The translations under genes and the position numbers were made by a program. Shown one piece after another: positions 8,479 through 32,000 of a stretch of DNA of 32,000 bases. This stretch comes from Vibrio alginolyticus NBRC 15630 = ATCC 17749. Lineage in GTDB: Bacteria; Pseudomonadota; Gammaproteobacteria; Enterobacterales; Vibrionaceae. The notes below the pieces were generated by a model. It saw nothing but the letters and a program-made list of their open reading frames with translations, searched no databases and was not told the origin of the DNA. The DNA lies in NCBI RefSeq assembly GCF_000354175.2, contig NC_022349.1, forward strand, positions 1,110,001-1,142,000, read 5' to 3'. Position 1 is the first letter of the stretch; the number at the start of each line of letters is the position of its first letter.

Positions 8479-9021
8479 AGTATCTTTACCTCTTACTTGT
8501 CTTTCTCGTCTAATCAGCTCAGGAGCATTAACTAAGCAAGTTATCCTTAACACTGGATCGTCAGCATTTGAGTCTCACCAGTCATTGTCATTTAACATTA
8601 TGTTTACAACGCAATCAGGACTAAGAATGTAAAGCAATTAACATTTCAGAAGGCAAATTAATAAAAGTGTGAGCTTGAAAGAGATGAATTGTTATAAATA
8701 TCAACCCAAGTCACTAAAAACTCTGACTGCAATAGCAAATACAAAAGCGGTTAAAATTAACAAAAAGAAAACAAATAAAGAAAAATAAACTTGAACAATC
8801 CTAAGCGCGACCCTTATAAGAAAAATCAATAGCAAACGTTTGCCATTGAACAAAACTTTATCGTTCGTCAATAAAATATCGATTAATCCATCAATAATAC
8901 CTTGCTGCATATTGCCAATTGTAAACGATAAGTGTAAAAAGCAAGGCGAGATAATTATCCGTAAATCCATTTATGGTTAGTGGGTAATTTTAGGATTTTA
9001 CATTTTATTAGCACAGAGGTT

Positions 9022-10437: not shown

Positions 10438-11622
10438 ATGAGTCTTGAGCAATCTTTGGACTATCTCACCAAAACAAATTTGCCGATCGAATCAAAGCAG
10501 CAGGCCTTGGTTGACTCAGTTATTCTTACCCTAACGAAACAAAAACGAGATGCTCTTTTTCAACCGGTTGCTCTGTATCGAATAAAACTGCTTAAATCTC
10601 TCTTTCCTAAACACGCATCAAAAAGTCTTTCTGCACTATTTGAGTTAATGGATTATCGAGATTTAGTGCAACAGTATCCGACAGGTTTCTCCAAAGAGAT
10701 TCGTTTACTTGAACAACTTGCCGCAGATTGTTACCCGCATTGGATGGTTTTCTGGTGTCAATGCGAGATCGAAGCAATCAAGCAAAAATATCCTTCAAAC
10801 GAAGCTGCGATTCCTACTCCGCTTCCGTTTGACGACCACAGCTATACTAGCGTGTTAATTGAAGATATCGCAGATTGCGATCTTGAGGTAATGCTGCCAA
10901 ATCATGCAGCGTTAATGCCGATTTCCGAAGCGATCACACTGAGTAATCTTGAGCTTTTCGTCCAAACTGAACAATGGTTTGAAATCTTGCCTCTTTTATC
11001 ACTCTCGCAAAAAGGGCAGCACTTTGCCCTCTTGCTCAAATCGTCATCTTCACCAATCATGGTCTCCTCCGCTTTAGTGCAAAGCTGGCATCAACGAAAT
11101 AACTGGCTCAGTTACTCACCACAGTTTAGTAACGAACAATGGCAGTTTTGCTTTCCTAATCATGGGTATAGTGTTCTCAATCAACTGGGTATTTTGGAGT
11201 GTCGTGCTCTAACTCATGAGCACACTCTTATTGAGTTTGATGCTCAGTTTCAATCTCGTGTAAAGAACAGTGAAGCGGTTTGCGAAGTACTGCGTCTTAC
11301 GGTGGGAGGCAACATTCAACAAAAGCTGTATTTTTTGTATCTGGCGCAAAAAACTATGATGAGCGAGCTCTATAAAGCAGGCTATAAGCTCGGCTTTACC
11401 ATTATTGAGCAAGTGTTTATGTTAAATTTCTATCAATCTATTGATTTAAGTGCCTACTTTCACTCAGGATACCGCGACATTAACAGTGACGGTACCAAGA
11501 CATACCGCGGTTTCTGGAATTTAGGTATGATGGTTGAAGCATTTCAAGACATACAATTTCGCGACTACAAACATTGCGTACGAACAAAAAGAATGGATAA
11601 AAAGGTGAATGAGCATGCTTGA
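10438..11622 (+). CDS. luxM: LuxM/AinS-family acyl-homoserine-lactone synthase (candidate)
   Basis: 394 aa, the size of LuxM/VanM/OpaM. It sits immediately upstream of a LuxN-type kinase and overlaps it by 14 nt, which is the canonical luxMN arrangement. The call rests on synteny and size. I did not verify catalytic motifs. Confidence 0.65.
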   Translation: MSLEQSLDYLTKTNLPIESKQQALVDSVILTLTKQKRDALFQPVALYRIKLLKSLFPKHASKSLSALFELMDYRDLVQQYPTGFSKEIRLLEQLAADCYPHWMVFWCQCEIEAIKQKYPSNEAAIPTPLPFDDHSYTSVLIEDIADCDLEVMLPNHAALMPISEAITLSNLELFVQTEQWFEILPLLSLSQKGQHFALLLKSSSSPIMVSSALVQSWHQRNNWLSYSPQFSNEQWQFCFPNHGYSVLNQLGILECRALTHEHTLIEFDAQFQSRVKNSEAVCEVLRLTVGGNIQQKLYFLYLAQKTMMSELYKAGYKLGFTIIEQVFMLNFYQSIDLSAYFHSGYRDINSDGTKTYRGFWNLGMMVEAFQDIQFRDYKHCVRTKRMDKKVNEHA

Positions 11623-14155
11623 TGTTCATTTGCACGGTATCTTTTACCCAAAAGCATTGGCATTGTACGCGACTGTACTAATAGTATTCGCTTGGTTACT
11701 GTATTACTGCTATCGCCTAAAACAGAAGAGTGAATCAATCTTAGGCTCGCATCACGCGCCTTACATCGCTTATTCCAGCTGTATCATTGTTTGGATAAGC
11801 AGCAACGCCTATTTCCATACCGATTTATTGCCAGAATTAGGCTCTGTTGGTGGCATTTTTATGGCTAAGTTAGCGAACTTAGCGTCTTTTTTCGCCTTTG
11901 CGTTTGCATTCTATTTTTCTTGCCAGTTAACCGCAGATGTTAAAAAAACAGCGGTCAAAGTCTGGCAAAAAGTCGTCTTTGTCGCACTAGCAACGTATTC
12001 ACTGTACATCAACTTAGTGCCGAATCTTACTGTCGAAAATGTCACCATTAGTGGTCCAAGCCAGTTCGTCATTGAATTTGGCTCACATACCTCATATTTT
12101 TTCATTAGTTTGCTAGCTTTCGTGGTACTAACGCTGCTTAACTTGATTGCCATGCGCGCGAACAGCAGCAAGCTCACGCTAGCAAAAAGCAACTATATGA
12201 TAGCTGGCATTTTGGTATTCATGTTATCTACGGCAGTGATACACCTTGGAATGACGTATTTCCTTGGCGACTTCTCCCTAACTTGGTTACCACCAGCACT
12301 TTCAATCAGCGAAATGTTGTTTGTGGGCTATGCCCTACTTACCTCTCGCTTCTACAGCGCTAAATATCTCACGTACTTAACGGTAAGCGCGCTCTTAGTC
12401 TGCGCCATTTTTGTTCTGCCGCTAGGGGCGATATTTATTCCTATCTCTGAAGATAACCAATGGCTTGTTGCGGTACCTTTATGTGCGCTTATCGGTATCA
12501 CTTGGCACTTGCTTTTTAAGCGAGTCAGTCGTTACGCTTCGTATTTTATTTATGGGAAACGACACACTCCCGTTCAGCAAATCCTTGGGTTAGAGGAAGA
12601 GTTTAAACGCTCAATAGATGATGCTATGCATCAGTTGGCATCGTTACTTAACATACCAAACAACAAGCTGCAGCTAGTCACTAGCAATTACACAGAAACG
12701 TTTTACGAAGAGTACCTGCCGTCAAGCAAGTCAGTTCTCGTGCTAGATGAGTTGTCTGAAGAAATTGATTATGCCTCCTCTTCTAAAGGGTCGATGAGAA
12801 AGCTCTACGAGCGCATGCGCTCAAGCAATACTGCGCTCGTTATGCCTCTCTTCGGTCGTGGAAAGTCAGTTACTCACTTACTAATTTCTTCACATAAAAT
12901 AGATAATAAGCTGTTTTCTAATGAAGAAATCTCAGCTCTGCAAACGTTATTAGTTCGCATCCAGAGCACCATTGAAGCCGATAGAAAGGTACGCCAAAGC
13001 CGTGCGCTGGCTAACTCCATTGCACATGAAATGCGTAACCCTCTCGCTCAAGTACAATTACAATTTGAAGCTTTAAAACAGCATATAGAGTCAAACGCCT
13101 CACTGGATACGCTAAAAAGAGAAATTGATAAAGGTGAAGCCGCTATACAACGCGGTAGACAACTTATCGATATTATTTTACGAGAAGTTAGCGACAGTTC
13201 ACCAGAGCATGAGCCTTTAGCTCTCACTTCCATACATAAAGCCATCGACCAAGCAGTAAGCCGTTATGGTTTTGAAAACGATCAAATAATAGAGAGAATT
13301 AACCTGCCACAGGCACACGATTTTGTCGCGAAGTTAAATGAGACCCTGTTTAACTTTGTCATTTTCAATTTGATTCGTAACGCTATCTACTATTTTGATT
13401 CTTATCCCGACAGTCAAATTGAGATTCGTACCCAGACGGGGGCTTACGAAAACATTCTGATCTTCCGAGATAGTGGGCCAGGTATAGATAGCAGTATCTT
13501 ACACAAGATATTTGATGACTTTTTCTCGTATCAAAAAAGCGGAGGCAGTGGCTTAGGTTTGGGCTATTGCCAACGTGTTATGCGCTCCTTCGGAGGACGA
13601 ATAGAGTGCCAGTCTGAATTGAACGAGTTCACAGAATTCTACTTGTATTTCCCAGTCGTACCAAACGCACCAAAACCAGAGACATTAAGAGCACCGGACT
13701 TTGATAGCTGGAAAGCAACTGCATCACATTTTGAAAATCATTCAGCTCAACACGTACAAGTATCTAAAGATGCACCAACAGTGCTCATTGTTGATGACAA
13801 AGAGGTGCAACGCACCTTGGTACAGATGTATTTAAAAAGGCTGGGAGTCAACAGCTTACAAGCAAATAATGGAGCCTCTGCGGTAGAACTATTCCACTCT
13901 CATAAGATTGATCTCGTTCTTATGGATGTCCAAATGCCGGTAATGAATGGATTTGACGCAAGCCAACGGATTAAGCAAATCACATCCTCCGTTCCAATCA
14001 TTGCCTTATCTGGTGAGTCTGGAGCTAGAGAGTTGGAGCTAATTTCGAAACTCATGGATGACAGACTCGAAAAGCCCACCACGTTAAATGCACTTCAAGT
14101 CGTCATCCAAAGATGGTTACAGAACGAGAATTCTGCGCCTTCCAACACTTTTTAA
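11609..14155 (+). CDS. luxN: Hybrid sensor histidine kinase, LuxN-type AHL receptor
   Basis: 848 aa; V. harveyi LuxN is 849 aa as I recall. The N-terminal ~300 aa hold many hydrophobic helices. The H-box is SIAHEMRNPL with His at residue 473. The ATPase G-boxes are DSGPGI and GGSGLGLGYC. The receiver is LVLMDVQMP with Asp at residue 773. These positions are 2 residues off the H471/D771 reported for LuxN. Confidence 0.85.
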   Translation: MSMLDVHLHGIFYPKALALYATVLIVFAWLLYYCYRLKQKSESILGSHHAPYIAYSSCIIVWISSNAYFHTDLLPELGSVGGIFMAKLANLASFFAFAFAFYFSCQLTADVKKTAVKVWQKVVFVALATYSLYINLVPNLTVENVTISGPSQFVIEFGSHTSYFFISLLAFVVLTLLNLIAMRANSSKLTLAKSNYMIAGILVFMLSTAVIHLGMTYFLGDFSLTWLPPALSISEMLFVGYALLTSRFYSAKYLTYLTVSALLVCAIFVLPLGAIFIPISEDNQWLVAVPLCALIGITWHLLFKRVSRYASYFIYGKRHTPVQQILGLEEEFKRSIDDAMHQLASLLNIPNNKLQLVTSNYTETFYEEYLPSSKSVLVLDELSEEIDYASSSKGSMRKLYERMRSSNTALVMPLFGRGKSVTHLLISSHKIDNKLFSNEEISALQTLLVRIQSTIEADRKVRQSRALANSIAHEMRNPLAQVQLQFEALKQHIESNASLDTLKREIDKGEAAIQRGRQLIDIILREVSDSSPEHEPLALTSIHKAIDQAVSRYGFENDQIIERINLPQAHDFVAKLNETLFNFVIFNLIRNAIYYFDSYPDSQIEIRTQTGAYENILIFRDSGPGIDSSILHKIFDDFFSYQKSGGSGLGLGYCQRVMRSFGGRIECQSELNEFTEFYLYFPVVPNAPKPETLRAPDFDSWKATASHFENHSAQHVQVSKDAPTVLIVDDKEVQRTLVQMYLKRLGVNSLQANNGASAVELFHSHKIDLVLMDVQMPVMNGFDASQRIKQITSSVPIIALSGESGARELELISKLMDDRLEKPTTLNALQVVIQRWLQNENSAPSNTF

Positions 14156-14266
14156 TCTGCAAATATAGAATTGGCACTAGATGTGCATTATTGGAGTAAA
14201 TCGAATTATCCAGAAGGTCAAGCAGGCTGCAAAAGAGTAGCGTATGAGCTTGATAAGGAGATCGCC

Positions 14267-14509
14267 ATGTTACTTCATCGACATACATACTACGGCTTGA
14301 TTCATCATGGAATCAAAACACTGTTACTTGATCGCTTAGGCCACTATACAGAAGAAGAGTATCATCAATATCTGAGCCTGATGACTGGTAAATCCACTTG
14401 CTTCACGATGTCTCTCGAAGAGCTAGAAGCAACGGTCGATAACTTACTACGGGAAGGCTATTTAGAAGATGTAAAAACGCTTATTTCCCAATATCAACGT
14501 GTTGCTTAA
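14267..14509 (+). CDS. Small hypothetical protein, GemA/Mu-gp16-like (DUF1018-like) fragment
   Basis: The ATG at 14267 is preceded by AAGGAG with a 7-nt spacer; the listed TTG start at 14171 has no such support. 80 aa. YHQYLSLMTGKSTCFTMSLEELEATVDNLLREGY resembles the conserved core of Mu GemA-family proteins as I recall it. A terminator follows. Confidence 0.45.
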   Translation: MLLHRHTYYGLIHHGIKTLLLDRLGHYTEEEYHQYLSLMTGKSTCFTMSLEELEATVDNLLREGYLEDVKTLISQYQRVA

Positions 14510-16307: not shown

Positions 16308-16700
16308 ATGAAAAAATTACTGTGTCTTTTCTTGGTATTTGGTGCTCTGGCTGGCTGTTCATCAACCGATGATAAGCAGCGCCAACTTGAGCTTATGGCA
16401 TCAAACCGAGCAGGAGTTTTGTCTGCGGGTCTCCCTTTAGAGTACGGTCCACTGCAAATAATGCGTGTCTCATCCAACAAAAATGTTGTAGAGATGATGA
16501 TGATTTATAACGATGGCGCACTCGGTGCAAAGCCGTTAAATCAAGTACTGAATACCAGTATCTATACCTACTGCAGCAACCCAGAAGTTCGCAAGCAAAT
16601 TGATATGGGCTTGATGTATCGTATTAAGGTACGTAATTCTCGCGGTCAGTTGATGGCAGATGAGTTGGTTTCCGCACAGACTTGTACTCAGGTGAAGTAG
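16308..16700 (+). CDS. Hypothetical lipoprotein
   Basis: 130 aa. It has a signal peptide with the lipobox LAGC (MKKLLCLFLVFGALAGCSS). It starts 3 nt after the yciI stop. Function unknown. Confidence 0.7.
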   Translation: MKKLLCLFLVFGALAGCSSTDDKQRQLELMASNRAGVLSAGLPLEYGPLQIMRVSSNKNVVEMMMIYNDGALGAKPLNQVLNTSIYTYCSNPEVRKQIDMGLMYRIKVRNSRGQLMADELVSAQTCTQVK

Positions 16701-24363: not shown

Positions 24364-26697
24364 ATGACCAATAACATCACTCCTATTCATGAGTACAAAA
24401 AATACTGGGCAGAGTGTTTTGGTACGGCACCTTTCTTGCCGACCAGTCGCAAAGAAATGGATGCCCTAGGATGGGATAGCTGTGACATTATCATTGTAAC
24501 CGGTGACGCTTATGTGGATCACCCAAGCTTTGGTATGGCTATCATTGGCCGCCTGCTAGAAGCACAAGGTTTCCGTGTCGGTATCATTGCTCAACCAGAA
24601 TGGCAAAATAAAGATGCGTTCATGCAACTTGGTAAGCCAAATCTGTTCTTCGGGATCACTGCGGGTAACATGGACTCCATGATCAACCGTTACACCGCGG
24701 ATAAAAAGCTTCGTCACGATGACGCGTACACACCGAATAACGAAGGTGGTAAACGCCCAGACCGAGCAACGTTGGTTTACTCTCAACGTTGTCGTGAGGC
24801 ATACAAAGAAGTACCTATTGTTTTAGGTGGTATCGAAGCTAGCCTACGCCGTGTTGCGCACTACGATTACTGGTCAGATAAAGTTCGCCGTTCTGTACTG
24901 TTTGATGCAAAAGCAGACATCCTACTTTTTGGTAACGCAGAGCGCGCACTTGTCGAAGTAGCACATCGCATCGCAAACGGCGAAGGCATCAGCACCATGA
25001 CCAATATTCGTGGTACTGCCGTGAACTTGCCAGCGGCGCCAGAAGGCTACACGGTTATTGATTCTTCTCGCATTGAAAAACCTCGTAAAGAAGCGTTCGT
25101 ACCAAAGAACCCATACGAAGTAGAAACTCAGTGTGAAACTAAAAAAGATGAGCCTGTTGCACAACCAATCACGATTCGCCCATCACGCCACGATGCTGCG
25201 ACGACTGCGGTCCGTTTACCTTCGTTTGAAAAGCTAAGAAACGATCGTATTCTTTATGCGCATGCAAGCCGTGTATTGCATCTAGAAACGAACCCGTACT
25301 CTGGTCGAGCGTTACTTCAAAGCCATGGTGATCGTGAACTTTGGGTAAACCAAGCTCCAATTCCATTGACGACCGAAGAGATGGACTTTGTGTTTGGCCT
25401 GCCTTACGCGCGTGTCCCTCACCCTATGTACGGGAAAGCAAAAATTCCTGCGTACGACATGATCAAGACGTCTGTAAACATCATGCGTGGTTGCTTTGGT
25501 GGCTGTTCTTTCTGTTCGATTACCGAGCATGAAGGTCGAATCATTCAAAACCGTTCGAAAGAGTCTATCATCAACGAGATTGAAGAAATTCGCGACAAAG
25601 TTCCAGGCTTTACCGGCACAATTTCCGATCTTGGTGGCCCGACTGCAAACATGTACCGCCTGGGCTGTAAAGATCCAAAAGCGGAAGCGAACTGTCGTCG
25701 TCCTTCTTGTGTATTCCCGGGCATCTGTAACAAGCTAAACACAGACCACAAACACACGATCGATTTATACCGCGAAGCGCGTAAAGTTGAAGGCGTGAAG
25801 AAAGTGATGGTTGCATCTGGCGTACGTTACGACCTTGCGATTGAATCACCAGAATACGTGAAAGAGCTCGTGACTCACCACGTAGGCGGTTACTTGAAGA
25901 TTGCACCGGAACATACAGAGAAAGGTCCTCTTGATCTGATGATGAAGCCAGGCATGGGTACGTACGATCGCTTTAAAGAGATGTTCGAGAAATACAGTGC
26001 AGAAGCAGGCAAGAAGCAGTACTTAATCCCTTATTTTATCTCTGCGCACCCAGGCACAGAAGACGAAGACATGCTGAACCTTGCTCTGTGGCTGAAAAAG
26101 AACAACTTCGAATGTGATCAAGTACAAAACTTCTACCCTTCGCCAATGTGTAACGCAACGTCGATGTACTACTCAGAGACAAACCCTCTGAAACGCGTGA
26201 AGTACAAAAAACGTGAAGATGTACCTGTAGCAAAAGGTGAACGTCAACGTCGCCTGCATAAAGCGCTGTTGCGTTATCACGATCCAGCAAACTGGCCAAT
26301 GATCCGTGAAGCCCTAATCAGTATGGGTAAAAAACATTTGATTGGTGACAAACAAGGCTGTCTCGTTCCTGCAGAAGACATTGAAGCACAAACACCTGCG
26401 CAACGTCGTAAATCTGGTCGTCATGGGGCAAACCGCTTTGCAACCAAACATACCAAAAACCAACCAGGCTTCGGTGGTCATTTGAACAAACGTTCTGAAG
26501 GCGGTTCAAAAGATGGTAAACCATCTGGCAACCGTAACGGTTCGGGTAAAGCTACAGGTGGTCAACGCCCTGCAAGCAACGGCCAACGTCCTAGCGGCAA
26601 CGGTGCAAACCGCCCGGCAGGTAGCAAGCCGCAAGGCCAAGGTCGCCCACAAGGACAAAGCAAACCAGCTGGTCAACGTAAACCAAAGCGTCGCTAA
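24364..26697 (+). CDS. ygiQ: YgiQ-family (UPF0313) radical SAM protein with low-complexity basic tail
   Basis: 777 aa. It has the CX3CX2C cluster motif CFGGCSFC and an N-terminal region typical of YgiQ ([22 protein letters not shown]). The C-terminal ~85 aa are rich in G/Q/R/P/N/K. Confidence 0.9.
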
Positions 26698-26720
26698 CTC
26701 TTTAGCACTTAAATACTAGA

Positions 26721-26758
26721 AAGGGCTCCAGAGGTAACTCTGGAGCCCTTTTGTTTTG
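26721..26758 (+). terminator. Strong rho-independent terminator after ygiQ
   Basis: A perfect 13-bp stem: AAGGGCTCCAGAG (26721-26733) pairs with CTCTGGAGCCCTT (26738-26750) around the loop GTAA, followed by TTGTTTTG. Confidence 0.85.
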
Positions 26759-26959
26759 TCGGCTCATTGAGGCATCACTCACAACTAAAACTTTGATTCA
26801 ATCAATACAAAAAATGGTAAACACCAACCAACTTATTGGAAAAACAAACAATTATTTGATTGACGCAAAACCATAAAAATCTAACTCATTGATTTTTAAT
26901 TGCTTTATTTTGGTGCGATATTTGCGTAATAGAATAAAACTCTTAAACATGGGCTAACG

Positions 26960-29900
26960 ATGAATAATCCACTTCCCCCAAAAACTTCTATGTTCTGGTA
27001 TGACAACAGCTATACCTATGAGGAGGCCGTTCAGGCATTTGAAAGCGATGGTACACTGAAATCGCTGAATATCGTTCCAACCACGGAATCCGATGATCTT
27101 GCTGGCTCACCCCCAGAGCGCAGTATGTTTTGGGAGGGAGAAACAAAAAAAATCGATCCGCCACCGCCGTCTGAACCAGAGCCTCTCAATTTAAAAACTG
27201 AGAAAGAAGCAACGGAAGCATCACCTGCGCACTTTATCCCAGTCCGCTATGCCATCGATCAGCTAGAAACAGAAGAGACACAACCTTTTGGTTTGCCTGA
27301 AGAATGGAAAGGGCAAGGCCCAGCCAAACTCAATACCGTTGGTTACACCCTGCGTCAACTGCGCGACGGTTGGCTGTATGTCTATGATGCAATCAACAAA
27401 AGCTTAGACGAATACGAAATCAAAGGAACGCAATTCACGCTCTATAAGTTGGGAGAATCAGAAAGCCCAAAATCAGAGCAGCGTGGGACACCACAAGATG
27501 CAAAGCCCTTCCTTACTTACGTCAACGGAAGCGTACTATCGATTTGCTTCTCTGAGCACCGGTGGACATGGCACACGTTCATGCGCGTACTTAACAATCC
27601 GAGTAATCATATCGATCGCATGCAAACCATTGTTCTGTCCTCAAACGAGAATCAGCACAACATTGCACCAATAGATAAGTTAACCCAAGTCGCTGATATT
27701 GAATCTTCTGCCGTCGATGATGGTCGCTTTGCGGATTCTGGCATCGCCACCAAAGCAGATGAAGATGGTTCTGTCTTTAAACCTGTCGCAGTCGAAAGCG
27801 ATTTAACCTCTGCGATTCCAGAAGAAGAATCAGGCTACTTCGTCGCGATAAAAGATTACGCCGCAGACATTCAAGATATGTCACTGCATTTTGTTGGTGC
27901 CGCAAGCCCTTACCGCCTTTTCACTGACCAGTTTTCAAACCAGTGGAACTTGATGCAGACCGCCATGCAACTGTGTATGTTTGGTGCAAGTGACGAGATA
28001 GACATGCCAGCTAGCGTTAAGCGTAACGGCGAAGAGCTGTCGTTTTATACCGACATGGCTGACTATTATGACTCCTCTCACCAACTTGATTTGGCAGAGC
28101 AGAACAAAAGCTCAGTTCAGTCCGGCTATCCTGCTAAATTTTCCGCTGGAGCGATTGAATCACACCAACATACCCAAAGTGACATTGCTAAAGCGATACA
28201 GGACAAATATCGAATTTCTGCGAGCCGTTTTGGTAAATACGAACAATGGATAGCGACTGAACGCTGGCGTCAGCAGCTCAACTGGAAGCAAATGCTGAGC
28301 GAGATGCAAGAGCTGTCAGAACAAAAAGAAACCATGCTAGCCCAAGTGGTTTCGGTCAAACGCGACTTTATCGCAGTAATGGAGTCCTTAACGCCGCATC
28401 ATCTCGAAAGAACCTTCGACCTATACAGCGAAGACACGCAGTACAGCTTGTATCAACTACACAAGCAAGCGGTTGAGTCATTTACTTTGGTGATACAAGA
28501 AGAAGACCGCCAATGGGCTGAAAGCCAATGGGAGAAACCAACCAGTTTACTTGCTCTCTATGCCTCTGGGTTTAGTCGTAGTTTATTTAAAGTGATGGAG
28601 AAGAATATTACAGAGGCGCTTGATGAACAGTCGATCGTCTCAGGAAATCCTGATCCTGATAATCAGTTGATGGACCAGATATCTGATACCAGCAACCGCG
28701 TGAATATGTACTCTAAGATCATGGACTTTGTTTCCAATCCAAACACTGCGGAAACAGCCTTTCTCAAAGATATCGCCAAAGGTTTCCAAGAGCTGGATAT
28801 TATTTTTAAATCTGCAATAGGTGCGCTTGCAAAAGGCGTTGTAGAGTTTGGTGTTAGCATGACCTCACAAGTATCAATTTCGCTGATGCCTGTTTTCGCT
28901 AAACCTCTGAACCGTCATAGCTATTATTTATTTGCCGTTATTGCAGAACATATGGCACACAACATGCCCGTAACAATAAAAGAAGGTTACGCTCGCGATT
29001 TTAAAAAATGGAAAACACGCGTAAATGATTATCTGATTAAGCTCGAAAAAAACGATGCAATCATTGCTGACTTCCAGAAAAATAACCGCAAAGCTGACTC
29101 TAAATACACAACAGCTTTAAAAAATAAAAAGACTATTAAGAAGGCTCTCGCTGTAGCTACATTGGAGTACCCGCAGTACATTGAGTTACCTGATGATCTA
29201 CCTCAAAGAACCATCGAGCTTAGAACGCGGATCGTGATGAATAAGCTCAATGATTTGAATAAACTGTTCGAGAATGCCGGTGGTCTAGGCTTTCTGGCAT
29301 TAATATTTAACTGCATCGCGCTTGGTGATGCCATGAGCAGTATTCAAGACACGGGGTTAATGTCCTCAGATGAATTTTTGGATATCCAGCAAAAGTTATT
29401 TTACACAGTCAACGCTTGGACAGGTGTTCGTACAGGTAAGTTATGGGAGAAAGTGAAGGGTGAACCTAGGTTAAGGTCACATTCATATAATGTCTTAAAA
29501 AAGTTAGTGAATAGAAACGAAGATACCTTTAAAAACTTAAACCTTGATGACCTAAAGGTATTCAATAAATGGCTAGCAATCACAGGGGCTTTAGGTGCGT
29601 TAGCTTCGGGTATTGAGGCTTACCGTTCTTGGCAGAGTGCTGACAAAGTTTATGGTCAAGAAAAATATCTGCATGTAGCAAATTCCCTAGTATTAACAGC
29701 AATGTCAGCTGTCGGTATATTCCAAGTATACGGAGGGTTAACTGGACAATTTGCATTAAACTTATCCTTTGGCGGGCCTATAACGGCCGGCCTGGTTATT
29801 CTCACGATTGCATACCTAGCCATCAATTATAAGTTGAATAAACTGAAACAAGATGATTTCCAAAAATGGTTAGATAAACTGCCTTGGGGTTATCACCCGA

Positions 29901-30457
29901 CTCGCACTCAGTGGAGCCAATCTTCGAGCTTACCCGAAAGAGAGAAGCATAATTCAGCATTGGTTCAGCAAGCGCTGTTTGACTTACAATCTATTATTCA
30001 ACAGCCTACGGTATACCATCAACCTATTGAAAAAGTACAAGCTTACCCAGGTTACACACATCGTGAGTTAATCGGTTTGGAAGTGCATATTCAACTGCCA
30101 AGGCGTGCTGCAACGAATGGTATTACGTTGAGAACTAACAGCAAGGCAACAGAAGATGATTTGATGTCAGGCTCGTGGCATCAAAACGCAGATTTAGTCA
30201 CGCTACAAACTCAAGATCAAGCGAGCAAAGAATCACTGGTGTACAAAGTAACCTTGCCAATTGAAGAAGCAGATCATTACCTTGCAATGCAAGTAGCTTA
30301 CGATGTGGAAGATGATGCCCCTGCTAAGCGTGAGTATTGGTTCCAAAACGGCATAAAACAGAGTGCAACTTATGGCATTATTTCAGACAATATCAAACAA
30401 GACATAATTAAAAAAACACTCACCCCCGCAGTTGGCACACTAGGTTTTCAGGAGTAA
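26960..30457 (+). CDS. Candidate T6SS MIX-type effector with a C-terminal membrane-inserting (pore-forming-type) region
   Basis: 1165 aa. All three MIX motif elements are present in order in the N-terminal region: FIPVR, LRDGWLYVY, ICFSEHRWT. There are four hydrophobic helices at aa ~774-957 and an unassigned C-terminal ~208 aa. I spotted no enzymatic signatures. The start is fixed by an in-frame TAG at 26930-26932. The SD is weak. Confidence 0.75.
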   Translation: MNNPLPPKTSMFWYDNSYTYEEAVQAFESDGTLKSLNIVPTTESDDLAGSPPERSMFWEGETKKIDPPPPSEPEPLNLKTEKEATEASPAHFIPVRYAIDQLETEETQPFGLPEEWKGQGPAKLNTVGYTLRQLRDGWLYVYDAINKSLDEYEIKGTQFTLYKLGESESPKSEQRGTPQDAKPFLTYVNGSVLSICFSEHRWTWHTFMRVLNNPSNHIDRMQTIVLSSNENQHNIAPIDKLTQVADIESSAVDDGRFADSGIATKADEDGSVFKPVAVESDLTSAIPEEESGYFVAIKDYAADIQDMSLHFVGAASPYRLFTDQFSNQWNLMQTAMQLCMFGASDEIDMPASVKRNGEELSFYTDMADYYDSSHQLDLAEQNKSSVQSGYPAKFSAGAIESHQHTQSDIAKAIQDKYRISASRFGKYEQWIATERWRQQLNWKQMLSEMQELSEQKETMLAQVVSVKRDFIAVMESLTPHHLERTFDLYSEDTQYSLYQLHKQAVESFTLVIQEEDRQWAESQWEKPTSLLALYASGFSRSLFKVMEKNITEALDEQSIVSGNPDPDNQLMDQISDTSNRVNMYSKIMDFVSNPNTAETAFLKDIAKGFQELDIIFKSAIGALAKGVVEFGVSMTSQVSISLMPVFAKPLNRHSYYLFAVIAEHMAHNMPVTIKEGYARDFKKWKTRVNDYLIKLEKNDAIIADFQKNNRKADSKYTTALKNKKTIKKALAVATLEYPQYIELPDDLPQRTIELRTRIVMNKLNDLNKLFENAGGLGFLALIFNCIALGDAMSSIQDTGLMSSDEFLDIQQKLFYTVNAWTGVRTGKLWEKVKGEPRLRSHSYNVLKKLVNRNEDTFKNLNLDDLKVFNKWLAITGALGALASGIEAYRSWQSADKVYGQEKYLHVANSLVLTAMSAVGIFQVYGGLTGQFALNLSFGGPITAGLVILTIAYLAINYKLNKLKQDDFQKWLDKLPWGYHPTRTQWSQSSSLPEREKHNSALVQQALFDLQSIIQQPTVYHQPIEKVQAYPGYTHRELIGLEVHIQLPRRAATNGITLRTNSKATEDDLMSGSWHQNADLVTLQTQDQASKESLVYKVTLPIEEADHYLAMQVAYDVEDDAPAKREYWFQNGIKQSATYGIISDNIKQDIIKKTLTPAVGTLGFQE
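27230..27568 (+). other. MIX (marker for type VI effectors) motif region within the effector ORF
   Basis: shhPhR is F92-R96 FIPVR (27233-27247). hRxGhhYhh is L134-Y142 LRDGWLYVY (27359-27385). hhF/YSxxxWS/T is I195-T203 ICFSEHRWT (27542-27568). Confidence 0.7.
29279..29830 (+). other. Cluster of four predicted transmembrane/hydrophobic helices in the effector C-terminal region
   Basis: The helices are aa 774-795 GGLGFLALIFNCIALGDAMSSI, 871-888 WLAITGALGALASGIEAY, 906-927 VANSLVLTAMSAVGIFQVYGGL and 939-957 GPITAGLVILTIAYLAINY. They are glycine/alanine-rich helices of the kind seen in pore-forming toxins. Confidence 0.6.
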
Positions 30458-30460
30458 CCC

Positions 30461-31405
30461 TTGGCATATTCACCGTTTTATATCACCCCAGAAGAATTGG
30501 CGGTTTATCAAGAAGCACAAGAGCAAGAGATTCTCAAAGGGGACAATTTAACAACATGGCATAAGTATGATGTAGAAGAGCCATTTCGCTACCATTACAA
30601 GTTAACGGCTTTGCCATTTATGAGCTTCTTATTTGTAATTGTATTTTTGACACACTCAAGTGATACGCTTGTCGTGACCTTTTTTGGCCTTATCTTGTCA
30701 GTAATGATGGCCGGGATCTTTTATCTTACGATTGGCCTCGACTATCGCTATGACTATATCTTTTCTGACAAAGGCTTTGTGATGAAGAAGCGTCGCAACA
30801 TGCCTAAGTGGGCGAATACCGCCACACAAGCCGTTGGCTGGATCGGTGCGGTAGTTTGCGTTTTGATGGTAGCGGTAGTTGGCCCGATGGCGTTAGCTGG
30901 AGCGGGCGCTCTTATTTTATTCTCATTTGGTATGTTAAAACGCAAGCCCGATGAACCAACAGAAGTGAGAATTGGAGAGCGTGAAGATTGGTTGTTTGCC
31001 GACTACAACAAAAAGCGCAAAGTGATCCAGTTCTACTTTAAGCAGGATAAGTGTGAATATATCGATATGGAACACAACACTATTGTCCGTTCACATAGTA
31101 GATCTGATTGCTACGTATTTTTCAAAACTGAAACGGACTTAGAATCGATGGTAAATCAGTTAGCTACGGAATATAAGCTGGATTGTACAGAGGTAGATGA
31201 CCACAAAAAGCTGTTTGAATCGAAGCCAGAATCAAGGCTCTTTAGTATTCCGGTTTGTAGTAGAGAATATCAAACCGAAGAGGTATTTGATTTAAGGGCG
31301 TCAAATGCCCCACTTCCTGAGCGTGAATACCTTTACAACGGCAAGTGGCAAACGGAATCTGAGATTGAAAAATCAAAATCTGAACTAACGGCAGCCAAGG
31401 TATAA
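30461..31405 (+). CDS. Candidate cognate immunity protein (four-TM inner-membrane protein with a ~150-aa soluble C-terminal domain)
   Basis: The TTG start lies 6 nt after AGGAG (30450-54), and that SD sits inside the last codons of the effector gene, whose stop is 30455-57. TM segments are at aa ~48-65, 70-92, 124-141 and 143-159. The position immediately 3' of a toxin gene is typical for immunity genes. The ORF call is solid; the function is inferred. Confidence 0.6.
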   Translation: MAYSPFYITPEELAVYQEAQEQEILKGDNLTTWHKYDVEEPFRYHYKLTALPFMSFLFVIVFLTHSSDTLVVTFFGLILSVMMAGIFYLTIGLDYRYDYIFSDKGFVMKKRRNMPKWANTATQAVGWIGAVVCVLMVAVVGPMALAGAGALILFSFGMLKRKPDEPTEVRIGEREDWLFADYNKKRKVIQFYFKQDKCEYIDMEHNTIVRSHSRSDCYVFFKTETDLESMVNQLATEYKLDCTEVDDHKKLFESKPESRLFSIPVCSREYQTEEVFDLRASNAPLPEREYLYNGKWQTESEIEKSKSELTAAKV

Positions 31406-31428
31406 ACCTTGGCTTGTTTACCTTTTTA
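31394..31428 (+). terminator. Putative terminator of the effector-immunity unit
   Basis: GCCAAGG (31394-31400) pairs with CCTTGGC (31407-31413). The stop codon TAA lies in the loop. It is followed by the T-rich TTGTTTACCTTTTTA. The stem is short, so this is a moderate call. Confidence 0.5.
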
Positions 31429-31533
31429 CATCCCCCAAAGCTTTAGGTTTACTCTGATGTACAAAAAGAAAAATTGGTTCAAATAACGAATTTTTAACTC
31501 GAGGATAGGAGAGTAAGCCCGAACCTTCTATCC

Positions 31534-31950
31534 TCAACTAAACACCCATTTTGCACTGAGTAAATAGTTACTCACCATGCCTGCCAATATGCCTAAGATC
31601 AAAGCCAAATAGACCATCACCCCTTGCGTTCCTAGCGCGAGCGTTACGCCTTTGAACACAATAAAGTTCGGCAAAGCACTGATACAGGCACTCGCCATAA
31701 ATTTTTGCCATTGAGCGAAAGGGTTGGTTTTTTCTGCTTGAGAGAAAGTCAGCCAGCGATTGCCAAGCCAAGTCGTGGTTGCTGCAAACAAAAATGCTAT
31801 CCCACGAGCCAGCATCAACTCCAGACCAAACCAATGGAACAACACAGAAAAGATAAGGGTGTCGACCATAAAGCCGACACCACCTACCAGAGCAAACCTT
31901 GTTAACGAAGCAAACCTTTCCAGCGAAGCAAATTTTGGTAATTTGCGCAT
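31534..31950 (-). CDS. GtrA-family membrane protein (polysaccharide/glycosylation-associated)
   Basis: It has four hydrophobic helices with GtrA-like motifs (RFALVGGVGFMVDTLIF, LGNRWLTFS, NYLLSAKWVF). The start is either ATG 31950 or GTG 31968. Confidence 0.85.
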   Translation of the reverse strand: MRKLPKFASLERFASLTRFALVGGVGFMVDTLIFSVLFHWFGLELMLARGIAFLFAATTTWLGNRWLTFSQAEKTNPFAQWQKFMASACISALPNFIVFKGVTLALGTQGVMVYLALILGILAGMVSNYLLSAKWVFS

Positions 31951-32000
31951 TCCGTTATCCAACCACACAGGTGTAGAGTGAGCGTTTCGATTTTGCTGTG

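Follow-up and report, generated by a model that had tools for sequence, protein, structure and literature searches.

[quoted passage not shown] Tke5/Tki5 of P. putida (PDB 9R8G) and Ptx2/Pti2 of P. aeruginosa (PDB 9QPV) belong to one protein family with the effector described below; in Tke5 and Ptx2 a MIX domain is followed by a toxic α-helical region, in which hydrophobic helices are buried, and by a C-terminal β-rich domain, and both effectors use adjacent Tap adaptors. Their partners Tki5 and Pti2 are membrane immunity proteins acting at the membrane level. Membrane depolarisation or ion-channel activity was shown for Tke5, and there are reports of it for VasX and Ptx2. A similar mode of action is found in pore-forming colicins, where a small multi-pass inner-membrane immunity protein recognises the toxin helices within the bilayer. 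VasX is encoded with vgrG2 and the DUF4123 adaptor VasW; an adjacent adaptor of this type and a VgrG are typical of VasX, Tke5 and Ptx2 yet do not define the family, and Bte2 is listed without an adaptor (PMC13133200).

In V. alginolyticus 12G01, Va16152/Va16147 were described as an orphan pair, a "MIX IV, pore-forming" effector with its immunity protein (Salomon et al. 2015, PMC4549250). V12G01_16152 was secreted only with T6SS1 active, mean spectral counts being 0.7 in the T6SS1-inactive and 17 in the T6SS1-active state (PMC4549250 Table 2, dataset). Prey deleted for va16152-47 was killed, and plasmid-borne Va16147 rescued it; that report also notes syntenic homologues in NBRC 15630 (PMC4549250).

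A two-gene cassette between ygiQ and gtrA

In a 32-kb stretch of V. alginolyticus NBRC 15630 DNA (the window), we find two adjoining genes on the forward strand between ygiQ and gtrA. ORF1 (26960..30457, + strand), with an ATG start, encodes a 1165-aa T6SS pore-forming effector of the MIX IV/VasX (BTH_I2691) family, and ORF2 (30461..31405, + strand), with a TTG start 3 nt past the TAA stop of ORF1, encodes a 314-aa inner-membrane immunity protein of the TsiV2 family (PF27447). The block is the V. alginolyticus copy of the characterised Va16152/Va16147 pair and falls within the VasX/TsiV2 families; it is real, but already known, and no new kind of system. With a probability of about 90%, the whole is best explained as a self-contained orphan T6SS effector/immunity cassette, a pore toxin with its TsiV2 immunity protein, that is an allele of Va16152/Va16147.

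The original prediction of an orphan bicistronic MIX-effector/membrane-immunity module was thus borne out. Secretome, competition and complementation experiments like those suggested with it had already succeeded for the 12G01 pair (PMC4549250). We call the cassette orphan because the 32-kb window holds no T6SS structural gene, and the presence of T6SS1 in the NBRC 15630 genome therefore rests on the literature. Unlike VasX, Tke5 and Ptx2, the cassette has no DUF4123/Tap adaptor or VgrG nearby: none lies in the window, and no adaptor, VgrG, PAAR or mobility gene adjoins it in three non-syntenic contexts. The block had also been called the only clearly accessory one in the window. Accessory it is at genus level, but within V. 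alginolyticus it is core, having been found in all genomes then available and assigned to the "core repertoire" (PMC4802749), and the gtrA block downstream is variable between species too.

On the 12G01 scaffold (GCA_000153505.1) the order metR-EAL-ygiQ-effector-TsiV2-gtrA is that of the window, and the flanking genes are 96.5-100% identical. The two strains thus share the ygiQ-gtrA slot, the bicistronic layout, the MIX IV class and both protein families. We took P0261 as Va16152 on the basis of its length of 1169 aa, which is that of V12G01_16152 in the PMC4549250 dataset, its accession (EAS75181.1), its position on the GCA_000153505.1 scaffold, and a synteny and orientation that fit the locus tags. 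Molecular mass did not serve for this identification, the computed 132,095 Da mismatching the 132,356 Da tabulated in PMC4549250. ORF1 is 80% and ORF2 70% identical to this tested pair, and they form a different allele class. The NBRC 15630 allele would be expected to behave as the tested orthologues and relatives do. The first ~890 aa of the effectors are near-identical save for a patch at aa ~341-420 (53%), whereas identity is 36% in aa 891-960, 40% in the β-tail and 32% in TM1-TM2 of the immunity protein. Cross-immunity between the NBRC 15630 and 12G01 alleles would therefore not be expected from their sequences. What the present analysis itself establishes is the assignment to families, the synteny shared with 12G01, the structure of the alleles, the co-variation and the presence of immunity arrays in other strains.

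Domains of the effector and its immunity protein

The 3.5-kb ORF1 was predicted to carry an N-terminal MIX signature, and a profile search agrees: Pfam VasX_N (PF20249) matches aa 92-228 with E = 2e-22 and 80.2 bits, above the curated cut-off of 27 bits. The MIX motif is defined as shhPhR, then hRxGhhYhh, then hhF/YSxxxWS/T, near the N-terminus (PMC12909789), and in ORF1 it is complete, with HFIPVR (aa 91-96), LRDGWLYVY (aa 134-142) and ICFSEHRWT (aa 195-203), the last identified by reading the translation. The resulting MIX/VasX_N domain (27230..27643, + strand; aa 91-228) is the T6SS-loading module, and in a search of the PDB it aligns with the MIX domain of Ptx2 (9qpv). HMMER-detectable similarity to Tke5 and Ptx2 is confined to this region, and sequence and profile searches of the PDB with ORF1 returned nothing beyond it. 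Assignment to the MIX IV clan is taken over from the 12G01 ortholog, which is 98-100% identical in aa 1-340. Preceding the domain is a 90-aa N-terminal extension (26960..27229, + strand; aa 1-90) which VasX lacks and which neither the Pfam nor the NCBIfam model covers. Besides a Pro-rich linker it has two SMFW motifs (at aa 10 and aa 55), and its sequence is 100% conserved in the 12G01 allele.

The NCBIfam model NF041559 (T6SS effector BTH_I2691 family) covers aa 91-1002 with 357.6 bits against a curated cut-off of 150, and the alignment spans positions 12-858 of its 858, with the hydrophobic helices of ORF1 inside. The literature places VasX in this same family. NCBI uses the name "T6SS effector BTH_I2691 family protein" for a protein identical to ORF1 that is found on 48 contigs. 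The NBRC 15630 protein P0176 matches ORF1 with 100% identity over 99% of its length. The C-terminal cluster of hydrophobic helices that had been predicted is seen as hydropathy peaks at about aa 769-792, 910-928 and 932-959. By analogy with the transmembrane region (TMD) of Ptx2 and the α-region of Tke5, aa ~765-960 (29252..29839, + strand), within the NCBIfam model, form a putative membrane-inserting region. Its distal part is a hypervariable hydrophobic hairpin (29630..29839, + strand; aa 891-960) that holds the least conserved bin of ORF1 and is a candidate determinant of immunity specificity. The Pfam scan of ORF1 (E ≤ 1) contained no colicin family, so that ORF1 is not a colicin; the "colicin-like" label came from HHpred on the 12G01 ortholog (PMC4549250). 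Unlike colicins, which use receptor and Tol/Ton import, this far larger toxin is T6SS-delivered.

The β-rich C-terminal tail of ORF1 (29999..30454, + strand; aa ~1014-1165) lies outside the family HMM, and here the β-domain known from Tke5 and Ptx2 is predicted only. AF2 models aa ~291-1013 as helical, though at low confidence (overall pLDDT 35.8), and places strands at aa 1017-1130 with a local pLDDT of only about 50-64. The models therefore give only weak fold-level support for the α and β regions; pLDDT is also low for ORF2 (45.1), in both cases probably because the alignments were shallow (≥78% identity). In a single Foldseek search against the PDB nearly all top matches were Ig-like domains, none with E ≤ 1e-3, and the tail may be an Ig-like sandwich, as the C-terminal domains of Tke5 and Ptx2 are in their solved structures. 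Such a C-terminal β-sandwich is optional in the BTH_I2691 family, some members being without it (PMC12909789). The C-terminal 176 aa used alone as a query gave 6 fragments, a number that reflects a word-index limit and says nothing on rarity.

For ORF2, precomputed annotation places PF27447.1 (TsiV2) on P0001 and P0002, both 100% identical to it, and PF27447 on all 120 homologues listed. ORF2 had no match in the local scans (Pfam, NCBIfam), as the library predates PF27447. The parallel with VasX/TsiV2 is thus stronger than was claimed, being one of homology (VasX_N, NF041559, PF27447) and not just of analogy. The membrane ORF predicted 3 nt past the ORF1 stop is indeed found at 30461-31405. 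Its membrane module (30581..30928, + strand; aa 41-156) has four predicted helices, at aa 48-66, 69-87 and 128-146 and a weaker one at aa 143-156, with a hypervariable TM1-TM2 (aa 46-92). The C-terminal α/β domain (30941..31402, + strand; aa 161-314), predicted to be cytoplasmic, matched no family and no solved structure, and sequence and profile searches of the PDB with ORF2 found nothing. This domain is missing in many of the shorter and more distant TsiV2 relatives. A 1206-aa protein with nine matches to a motif of this domain (P0301) was rejected as a relative, as it looks like an unrelated repeat protein.

With this architecture in mind, a mechanism may be proposed. The MIX domain would load the effector onto the T6SS1 spike, and injection would bring it into the neighbour's periplasm, where the buried hydrophobic helices (aa ~765-960) would insert into the inner membrane, and the ion-conducting pore they form would make the membrane potential collapse. 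The β-rich domain would probably aid membrane binding. ORF2, whose translation may be coupled to that of ORF1 through its TTG start and the AGGAG ribosome-binding site inside the ORF1 end (30450..30454, + strand), would be a four-helix inner-membrane protein with almost no periplasmic exposure, neutralising the toxin at or within the membrane as Tki5 and Pti2 do. The TTG-start layout recurs in related loci.

Co-variation of toxin and immunity types

A TsiV2 gene lies directly downstream of the VasX-family effector in 15/15 independent loci examined, and as many as five TsiV2 genes occur in tandem at the ygiQ-gtrA locus of other strains. Population-wide, the cassette behaves as a T6SS effector/immunity locus: the C-terminus is polymorphic, the immunity types match, and there are arrays of orphan immunity genes. 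Hairpin types (aa 891-960) pair one-to-one with the type of N-module that the first immunity gene encodes. Among 15 effector/immunity pairs, which are phylogenetically non-independent, the hairpin co-varies with TM1-TM2 when the β-domain is controlled for (partial Mantel r = 0.72, p = 2e-4), while the β-domain with the hairpin controlled for does not do so significantly (r = −0.44). The β-domain and linker co-vary with immunity aa 93-160 (r = 0.81-0.94), and the ORF2 C-terminal domain with effector aa 761-890 (r = 0.72). The co-variation of hairpin and TM1-TM2 exceeds simple linkage, and we infer that specificity resides in hairpin aa 891-960 and immunity TM1-TM2. In comparison with Tke5/Tki5 and Ptx2/Pti2, the co-variation here points to the hydrophobic hairpin.

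A serious competitor, quite possible although we do not favour it, is that the co-variation reflects mere linkage and shared ancestry of adjacent DNA and is uninformative on the site of specificity. The 3′ end of the effector gene abuts the 5′ end of the immunity gene, the β-domain and linker too co-vary with the adjoining immunity protein, and the pairs are few and share ancestry. However, the β-domain sits between the hairpin and the immunity gene, and yet the hairpin still predicts TM1-TM2; moreover, β types B1, B3 and B4 are each found with two different immunity types, whereas hairpin types track immunity types.

The pore toxin might also have as its main or additional target the membranes of eukaryotes (grazers or host cells) rather than those of rival bacteria. 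VasX was first identified as needed for killing Dictyostelium (PMC13133200, PMC5666596), and pore formers can be promiscuous. This is unlikely for the present pair, since the dedicated immunity gene that always adjoins the effector and the orphan immunity arrays indicate bacterium-versus-bacterium selection, and the 12G01 ortholog kills bacterial prey lacking the immunity gene (PMC4549250).

Leader, terminators and portability

The cassette was predicted to be preceded by an AT-rich leader of ~200 bp and insulated by a terminator on one side and a hairpin on the other, and all three are present. The leader (26753-26959) has a GC content of 0.31 as against 0.44 for the whole window. To its left, outside the cassette, the intrinsic terminator of ygiQ was placed by our scan at 26719..26752 (+ strand) with a perfect 14-bp stem (AAAGGGCTCCAGAG / CTCTGGAGCCCTTT), a GTAA loop and a T-run, so that the predicted 13-bp stem at 26721-26758 was essentially right. 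The pattern occurs once in the window; a second copy lies downstream of the immunity gene in L005, L006, L015 and L018, and in L006 the cassette is flanked by a 39-nt direct repeat, 92% identical. The downstream hairpin, expected at 31394-31428, was found at 31393..31414 (+ strand), where a 9-bp stem overlapping the ORF2 stop and followed by TGTTTACCTTTTT forms a weak terminator marking the right end of the cassette. In V. vulnificus L017, where the genomic context is different, this hairpin and about 45 bp past the stop codon are conserved.

Within the leader, a σ54-type −24/−12-like promoter motif, TGGTGCGATATTTGC, is found at 26911..26925 (+ strand). TGG-N8-TTGC is unchanged in 14/14 loci, its −12 GC 34-42 nt before the ATG, and is kept where the surrounding leader is hardly alignable. 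Since the bare pattern is not rare in the window (7 matches against 5.5 expected), only the cross-context conservation supports the motif. The leader yielded no σ70-like site. At 26829..26839 (+ strand) there is a conserved distal element, CAACTTATTGG, which lies 72-83 bp upstream of the TGG; its consensus CAAYTTATTRG is matched at 12/14 loci, including all three in unrelated genomic contexts, and the two V. harveyi loci differ from it by one base. Judging by this conservation the element may be an activator-binding site, and the cassette would have its own σ54-type promoter, transcribing it together with T6SS1.

A silent or decaying copy, retained only for immunity against other strains, would fit the repression of VaT6SS1 by H-NS in laboratory conditions, the AT-rich leader and the lack of a nearby adaptor gene; this is very improbable, as neither ORF is disrupted, the 48 contigs carry ORF1 with 100% identity, its homologues are full-length across many species, and the promoter-like elements, ribosome-binding site and terminator are conserved. 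Least credible of all is a new family sharing only its MIX N-terminus with VasX, as originally suggested for the C-terminal ~400 aa and the whole downstream protein. In its favour are the last ~160 aa of ORF1 outside the HMM, the empty local scans of ORF2 and its unmatched C-terminal domain. Against it, the NCBIfam model takes in the hydrophobic helices up to aa 1002, every ORF2 homologue carries PF27447, the tail is predicted β-rich as in Tke5 and Ptx2, and the pair was previously described as MIX IV and pore-forming (PMC4549250).

For the orphan VasX/TsiV2-type cassette, the findings may be combined, tentatively and with some doubt, into a portable, self-regulated unit of ~4.6 kb (roughly 26805-31450). 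According to this speculation, the transmembrane hairpin aa 891-960 would set the specificity of killing and be read by TM1-TM2 in the bilayer, an own σ54-type promoter would tie the unit to the T6SS1 cascade, and loading would proceed without a dedicated adjacent adaptor, possibly via the 90-aa N-terminal extension.

The value of the locus as a discovery is small, as the pair is annotated, its families are named and its ortholog passed experimental validation a decade ago. Some practical value for the VasX/TsiV2 family comes from the fact that recognition of the toxin by the immunity protein is still stated as unresolved (PMC13133200). At least five hairpin/TM1-TM2 classes in at least eight Vibrio species, together with the orphan immunity arrays, make up a natural allele series, a ready-made chimera set for mapping specificity in the VasX/TsiV2 family. 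These classes predict which V. alginolyticus strains would be mutually incompatible. If the combined reading is true, Harveyi-clade vibrios would swap a few trans-specific compatibility classes and stockpile them as immunity arrays.

An allele of a validated T6SS1 effector/immunity pair, of the VasX and TsiV2 families

The two genes of the cassette lie on the forward strand exactly as the original prediction had placed them. ORF1 (26960-30457), with an ATG start, encodes the 1165-aa effector, and ORF2 (30461-31405), encoding the 314-aa immunity protein, begins with a TTG codon 3 nt past the TAA stop of ORF1, its AGGAG ribosome-binding site being placed within the ORF1 3' end. The strong terminator of ygiQ (26719-26752, forward strand; ygiQ ends at 26697) is also present, with a perfect stem of 14 bp rather than the predicted 13 bp, followed by a T-run. 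The expected downstream hairpin is seen on the same strand at 31393-31414, though its 9-bp stem, which covers the ORF2 stop codon, is weaker than the ygiQ terminator; the AT-rich leader, estimated at ~200 bp, measures 207 bp (26753-26959) with a GC content of 0.31, against 0.44 for the whole window.

The MIX signature proposed for the N-terminus of ORF1 is borne out by Pfam VasX_N, which matches aa 92-228 (E = 2e-22), and by the three sub-motifs of the published MIX definition (PMC12909789), which all occur in ORF1: HFIPVR (aa 91-96), LRDGWLYVY (aa 134-142) and ICFSEHRWT (aa 195-203). The NCBIfam model NF041559, "T6SS effector BTH_I2691 family protein", spans aa 91-1002 end to end with 358 bits (cut-off 150 bits). 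The hydrophobic helices (aa 769-792, 910-928 and 932-959) all fall within this span, so that these C-terminal helices, once thought to resemble nothing nameable, lie inside a known family model. The identical 1165-aa protein occurs on 48 contigs and already bears this family name at NCBI, and full-length homologues of 77-100% identity are found in V. alginolyticus, V. diabolicus, V. antiquarius, V. harveyi, V. campbellii, V. owensii, V. jasicida, V. vulnificus and V. coralliilyticus.

NF041559 ends where the predicted β-rich tail of ORF1 starts, which fits the published absence of the β-region from some BTH_I2691-family members (PMC12909789). In a poor AF2 model (pLDDT 35.8), helices extend up to about aa 1013 and strands occupy aa 1017-1130. 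A Foldseek search of the PDB with this model gave no match at E <= 1e-3; the top matches were nearly all ~120-residue Ig-like domains, and the model thus lends weak support to a tail that may be Ig-like. The only solved structure detectable from the ORF1 sequence is Ptx2 (9qpv), via the MIX region. Ahead of MIX, aa 1-90 (26960-27229) form a conserved extension into which no family model reaches; it contains the SMFW motif twice (aa 10 and 55) and a proline-rich linker, PPPPSEPEP. In the V. diabolicus locus L006 (10001-10195) this extension is apparently duplicated or disrupted, because the tblastn match is broken into aa 1-65 and aa 50-1165.

Local Pfam and NCBIfam scans of ORF2 gave no match. 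PF27447, named "TsiV2" in the contig annotation, is precomputed on every ORF2 homologue in a large protein collection, including those 100% identical; the suspicion of an uncharacterised immunity family is therefore not upheld. TsiV2 is the immunity partner of VasX, and its family is a small one, with 93 cluster representatives among 1.84 billion, and many of its members are ~240 aa long and align to the membrane module of ORF2 alone. Helices of ORF2 are predicted at aa 41-63, 70-94, 116-140 and 143-156, with a K/R-rich loop (aa 95-115) and a C-terminal α/β domain predicted to be cytoplasmic, and with predicted periplasmic loops of only 6 and 2 residues. Sequence and profile searches detected no relatives of the C-terminal domain. 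One protein of a representative library (P0301, 1206 aa) contains nine stretches resembling ORF2 aa 245-307; its Pfam matches are weak and unrelated, and P0301 is probably a repeat protein with a spurious resemblance to ORF2.

The original prediction was thus right about a VasX/TsiV2-like system, with ORF1 in the VasX/BTH_I2691 family and ORF2 in the TsiV2 family, and wrong about its novelty: the cassette is an allele of a T6SS1 effector/immunity pair that is already known and validated. In V. alginolyticus 12G01, the effector Va16152, described as "MIX IV, pore-forming", is encoded outside the T6SS1 cluster, directly upstream of the candidate immunity gene Va16147, and was seen by mass spectrometry solely with T6SS1 active (Salomon et al. 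2015, PMC4549250). The wild type inhibited prey that lacked va16152-47, an effect that depended on hcp1, and Va16147 supplied on a plasmid rescued these prey (PMC4549250). V12G01_16152 has 1169 aa in the dataset of that paper (PMC4549250), as does the ORF1-family protein P0261 (EAS75181.1) on scaffold CH902590.1 of GCA_000153505.1, whose computed mass of 132,095 Da is 260 Da off the value tabulated there. The gene order on this scaffold (metE, metR, DUF4250, HI_1241, EAL, ygiQ, effector, 314-aa TsiV2, gtrA, PMT, GT2) is that of the window, with flanking proteins 96.5-100% identical. Homologues of the pair with shared synteny were reported in NBRC 15630 itself (PMC4549250), and the NBRC 15630 protein P0176 is 100% identical to ORF1 across 99% of its length. 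ORF1 and the 12G01 effector differ little over most of aa 1-890 and diverge sharply beyond; by effector hairpin (H) and immunity N-module (n) type, the 12G01 pair is of class H7/n2, whereas the window pair is of class H5/n4.

Genomic setting, immunity arrays and mobility

The remaining window (trpEGDCBA, luxM/luxN, ispZ, yciA, metE/metR, an EAL phosphodiesterase and ygiQ) is core chromosome of Harveyi-clade Vibrio, and no T6SS structural genes occur in the window. The luxM-like gene (394 aa) and luxN (10438-14155), ~13 kb upstream, are an ordinary core quorum-sensing pair of this clade; LuxN matches the LuxN_Vibrio equivalog with 1644 bits and the luxM-like protein has no NCBIfam match. Two small ORFs (14171-14509, 112 aa; 16308-16700, 130 aa) are likewise without match in the NCBIfam scan, and a GC-poor intergenic gap (8554-8979; GC 0.32 in 8501-9000) separates acyl-CoA ligase and transporter genes.

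On the 3' side of the cassette, gtrA lies on the opposite strand. The gtrA-PMT-GT2 block (window 31534-31968 onward, compared with L001 12593-15463, L006 14583-16679 and L005 14578-17383) differs among close species, with a chemoreceptor gene in its place in V. diabolicus and a pyridine-nucleotide oxidoreductase and an SDF transporter in V. harveyi and V. campbellii. Because this block is also variable, the cassette is not, as had been claimed, the sole accessory element hereabouts.

The cassette was described as an "orphan" MIX IV E/I cassette present in all V. alginolyticus genomes then available (PMC4802749), and no homologue was found in V. parahaemolyticus RIMD 2210633 (PMC4549250). In V. 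zhanjiangensis, V. coralliilyticus and V. vulnificus it occurs in unrelated contexts, where no T6SS, adaptor or mobility genes were found nearby. It is therefore accessory at the genus level and fixed within V. alginolyticus.

In other strains, several TsiV2 genes of foreign classes stand in tandem behind the effector in the ygiQ-gtrA slot, and every one of them begins with TTG 3 nt past the preceding stop. These orphan-immunity arrays of different specificity classes comprise two genes each in L016 and L019 and at least five in V. harveyi L013 (7502-11498), and arrays of 2 to 5 or more genes are also found at L017 (7505-10360), L007 (12982-15825) and L014. Behind an effector 100% identical to ORF1, L010 (8053-13747) carries five TsiV2 genes and a fragment, whereas the window carries the cognate gene alone.

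The ygiQ terminator hairpin reads GGCTCCAGAG-N4-CTCTGGAGCC. A second hairpin of this type lies just past the immunity gene in V. diabolicus, V. harveyi, V. campbellii and Vibrio sp. B1ASS3; copies were located in L006 (9758-9796 and 14495-14533), L005 (9753-9776 and 14519-14542), L015 (8502-8525) and L018 (8490-8513), and no downstream copy is present in the window. Thus, a direct repeat (39 nt and 92% identical in L006) brackets the cassette in L005 and L006, and it may be an insertion scar.

Allele classes and recognition of the toxin

[quoted passage not shown] From the periplasm, toxins of this type depolarise the inner membrane; in Tke5 the α-region is toxic by itself and is what the immunity protein neutralises, and the β-region binds membranes. 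The order of ORF1 (90-aa extension, MIX, helices, then predicted β-strands) fits this layout. The cassette differs from VasX, Tke5 and Ptx2, each of which has an adjacent DUF4123 adaptor, in lacking one, in the 90-aa extension of ORF1 and in an ORF2 C-terminal domain without detectable kin. A patch at ORF1 aa 341-420 roughly matches the position of the Ptx2 'sensor region'.

Among 15 independent effector/immunity pairs, the effector is a recombination mosaic whose variable modules (aa 341-420, 551-760, 761-890 and 891-1165) assort semi-independently. Several of the internal modules exist in two or three divergent versions each, which assort without regard to the putative specificity region at the C-terminus; the effectors of L015 and the window, for instance, share 99% identity over aa 891-1165 and only 44% over aa 551-760. 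Conservation is lowest in effector aa 901-950, a bin in the hydrophobic hairpin (aa 891-960), and in immunity aa 51-75, which falls on TM1-TM2. Hairpin type and the N-module type of the first immunity gene correspond one-to-one: H5 occurs with n4 (window, V. crassostreae L008, L010, L015), H7/H8 with n2/n3 (12G01, V. harveyi L005, V. campbellii L018, L016), H1/H2 with n5/n6 (L006, L012, L013, L014, L009), H3/H4 with n7/n8 (L007, L019) and H6 with n6 (L017). In Mantel tests, variation in effector aa 891-1165 follows that in immunity aa 1-160, whereas effector aa 1-760 shows no such co-variation; effector aa 761-890 co-varies with the ORF2 C-terminal domain (r = 0.72). In V. harveyi L005 (13264-13326), the β-domain coding region contains a 9-nt tandem repeat, TTCCTCAGA, in five overlapping copies, which appears to encode a Ser/Asp-rich repeat that could be a length-variable loop.

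Genetic linkage is an obvious confound of such co-variation. On the DNA, however, the β-domain separates the hairpin from the immunity gene, and the hairpin remains predictive of TM1-TM2 once the β-domain is controlled for (r = 0.72, p = 2e-4); the β-domain is not, once the hairpin is controlled for (r = −0.44). Together with the near absence of periplasmic exposure in ORF2, the hairpin/TM1-TM2 co-variation, from 15 non-independent pairs, favours recognition of the toxin by ORF2 inside the membrane, as by the immunity proteins of pore-forming colicins.

A σ54-like element in the leader

A promoter scan found no σ70-like promoter in the leader. In an alignment of eight leaders, TGG-N8-TTGC (window 26911-26925) is invariant and a second, distal block, CAACTTATTGG (window 26829-26839), is shared; when 14 loci are compared, both recur in all or almost all. 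Across these 14, the −12 GC lies 34-42 nt 5' of the ATG and the distal block 72-83 bp 5' of the TGG, a spacing maintained in three foreign contexts despite hardly alignable surroundings. The geometry of the putative promoter is of the σ54 −24/−12 type; since the bare pattern is not rare in the window (7 matches, with 5.5 expected), only its conservation argues for it. VaT6SS1 is repressed by H-NS, and a regulatory cascade leads from TfoY through VP1407 to VP1391, a possible σ54 activator; in V. cholerae, the auxiliary clusters are under RpoN/VasH control. A literature search found nothing on the promoter of this cassette. We hypothesise from the leader sequences that RpoN and an enhancer-binding protein would couple the expression of the orphan cassette to that of T6SS1. 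With the pair itself already known, what retains interest is the hypothesis of allele classes with intramembrane specificity, the σ54-like promoter and the missing adaptor.
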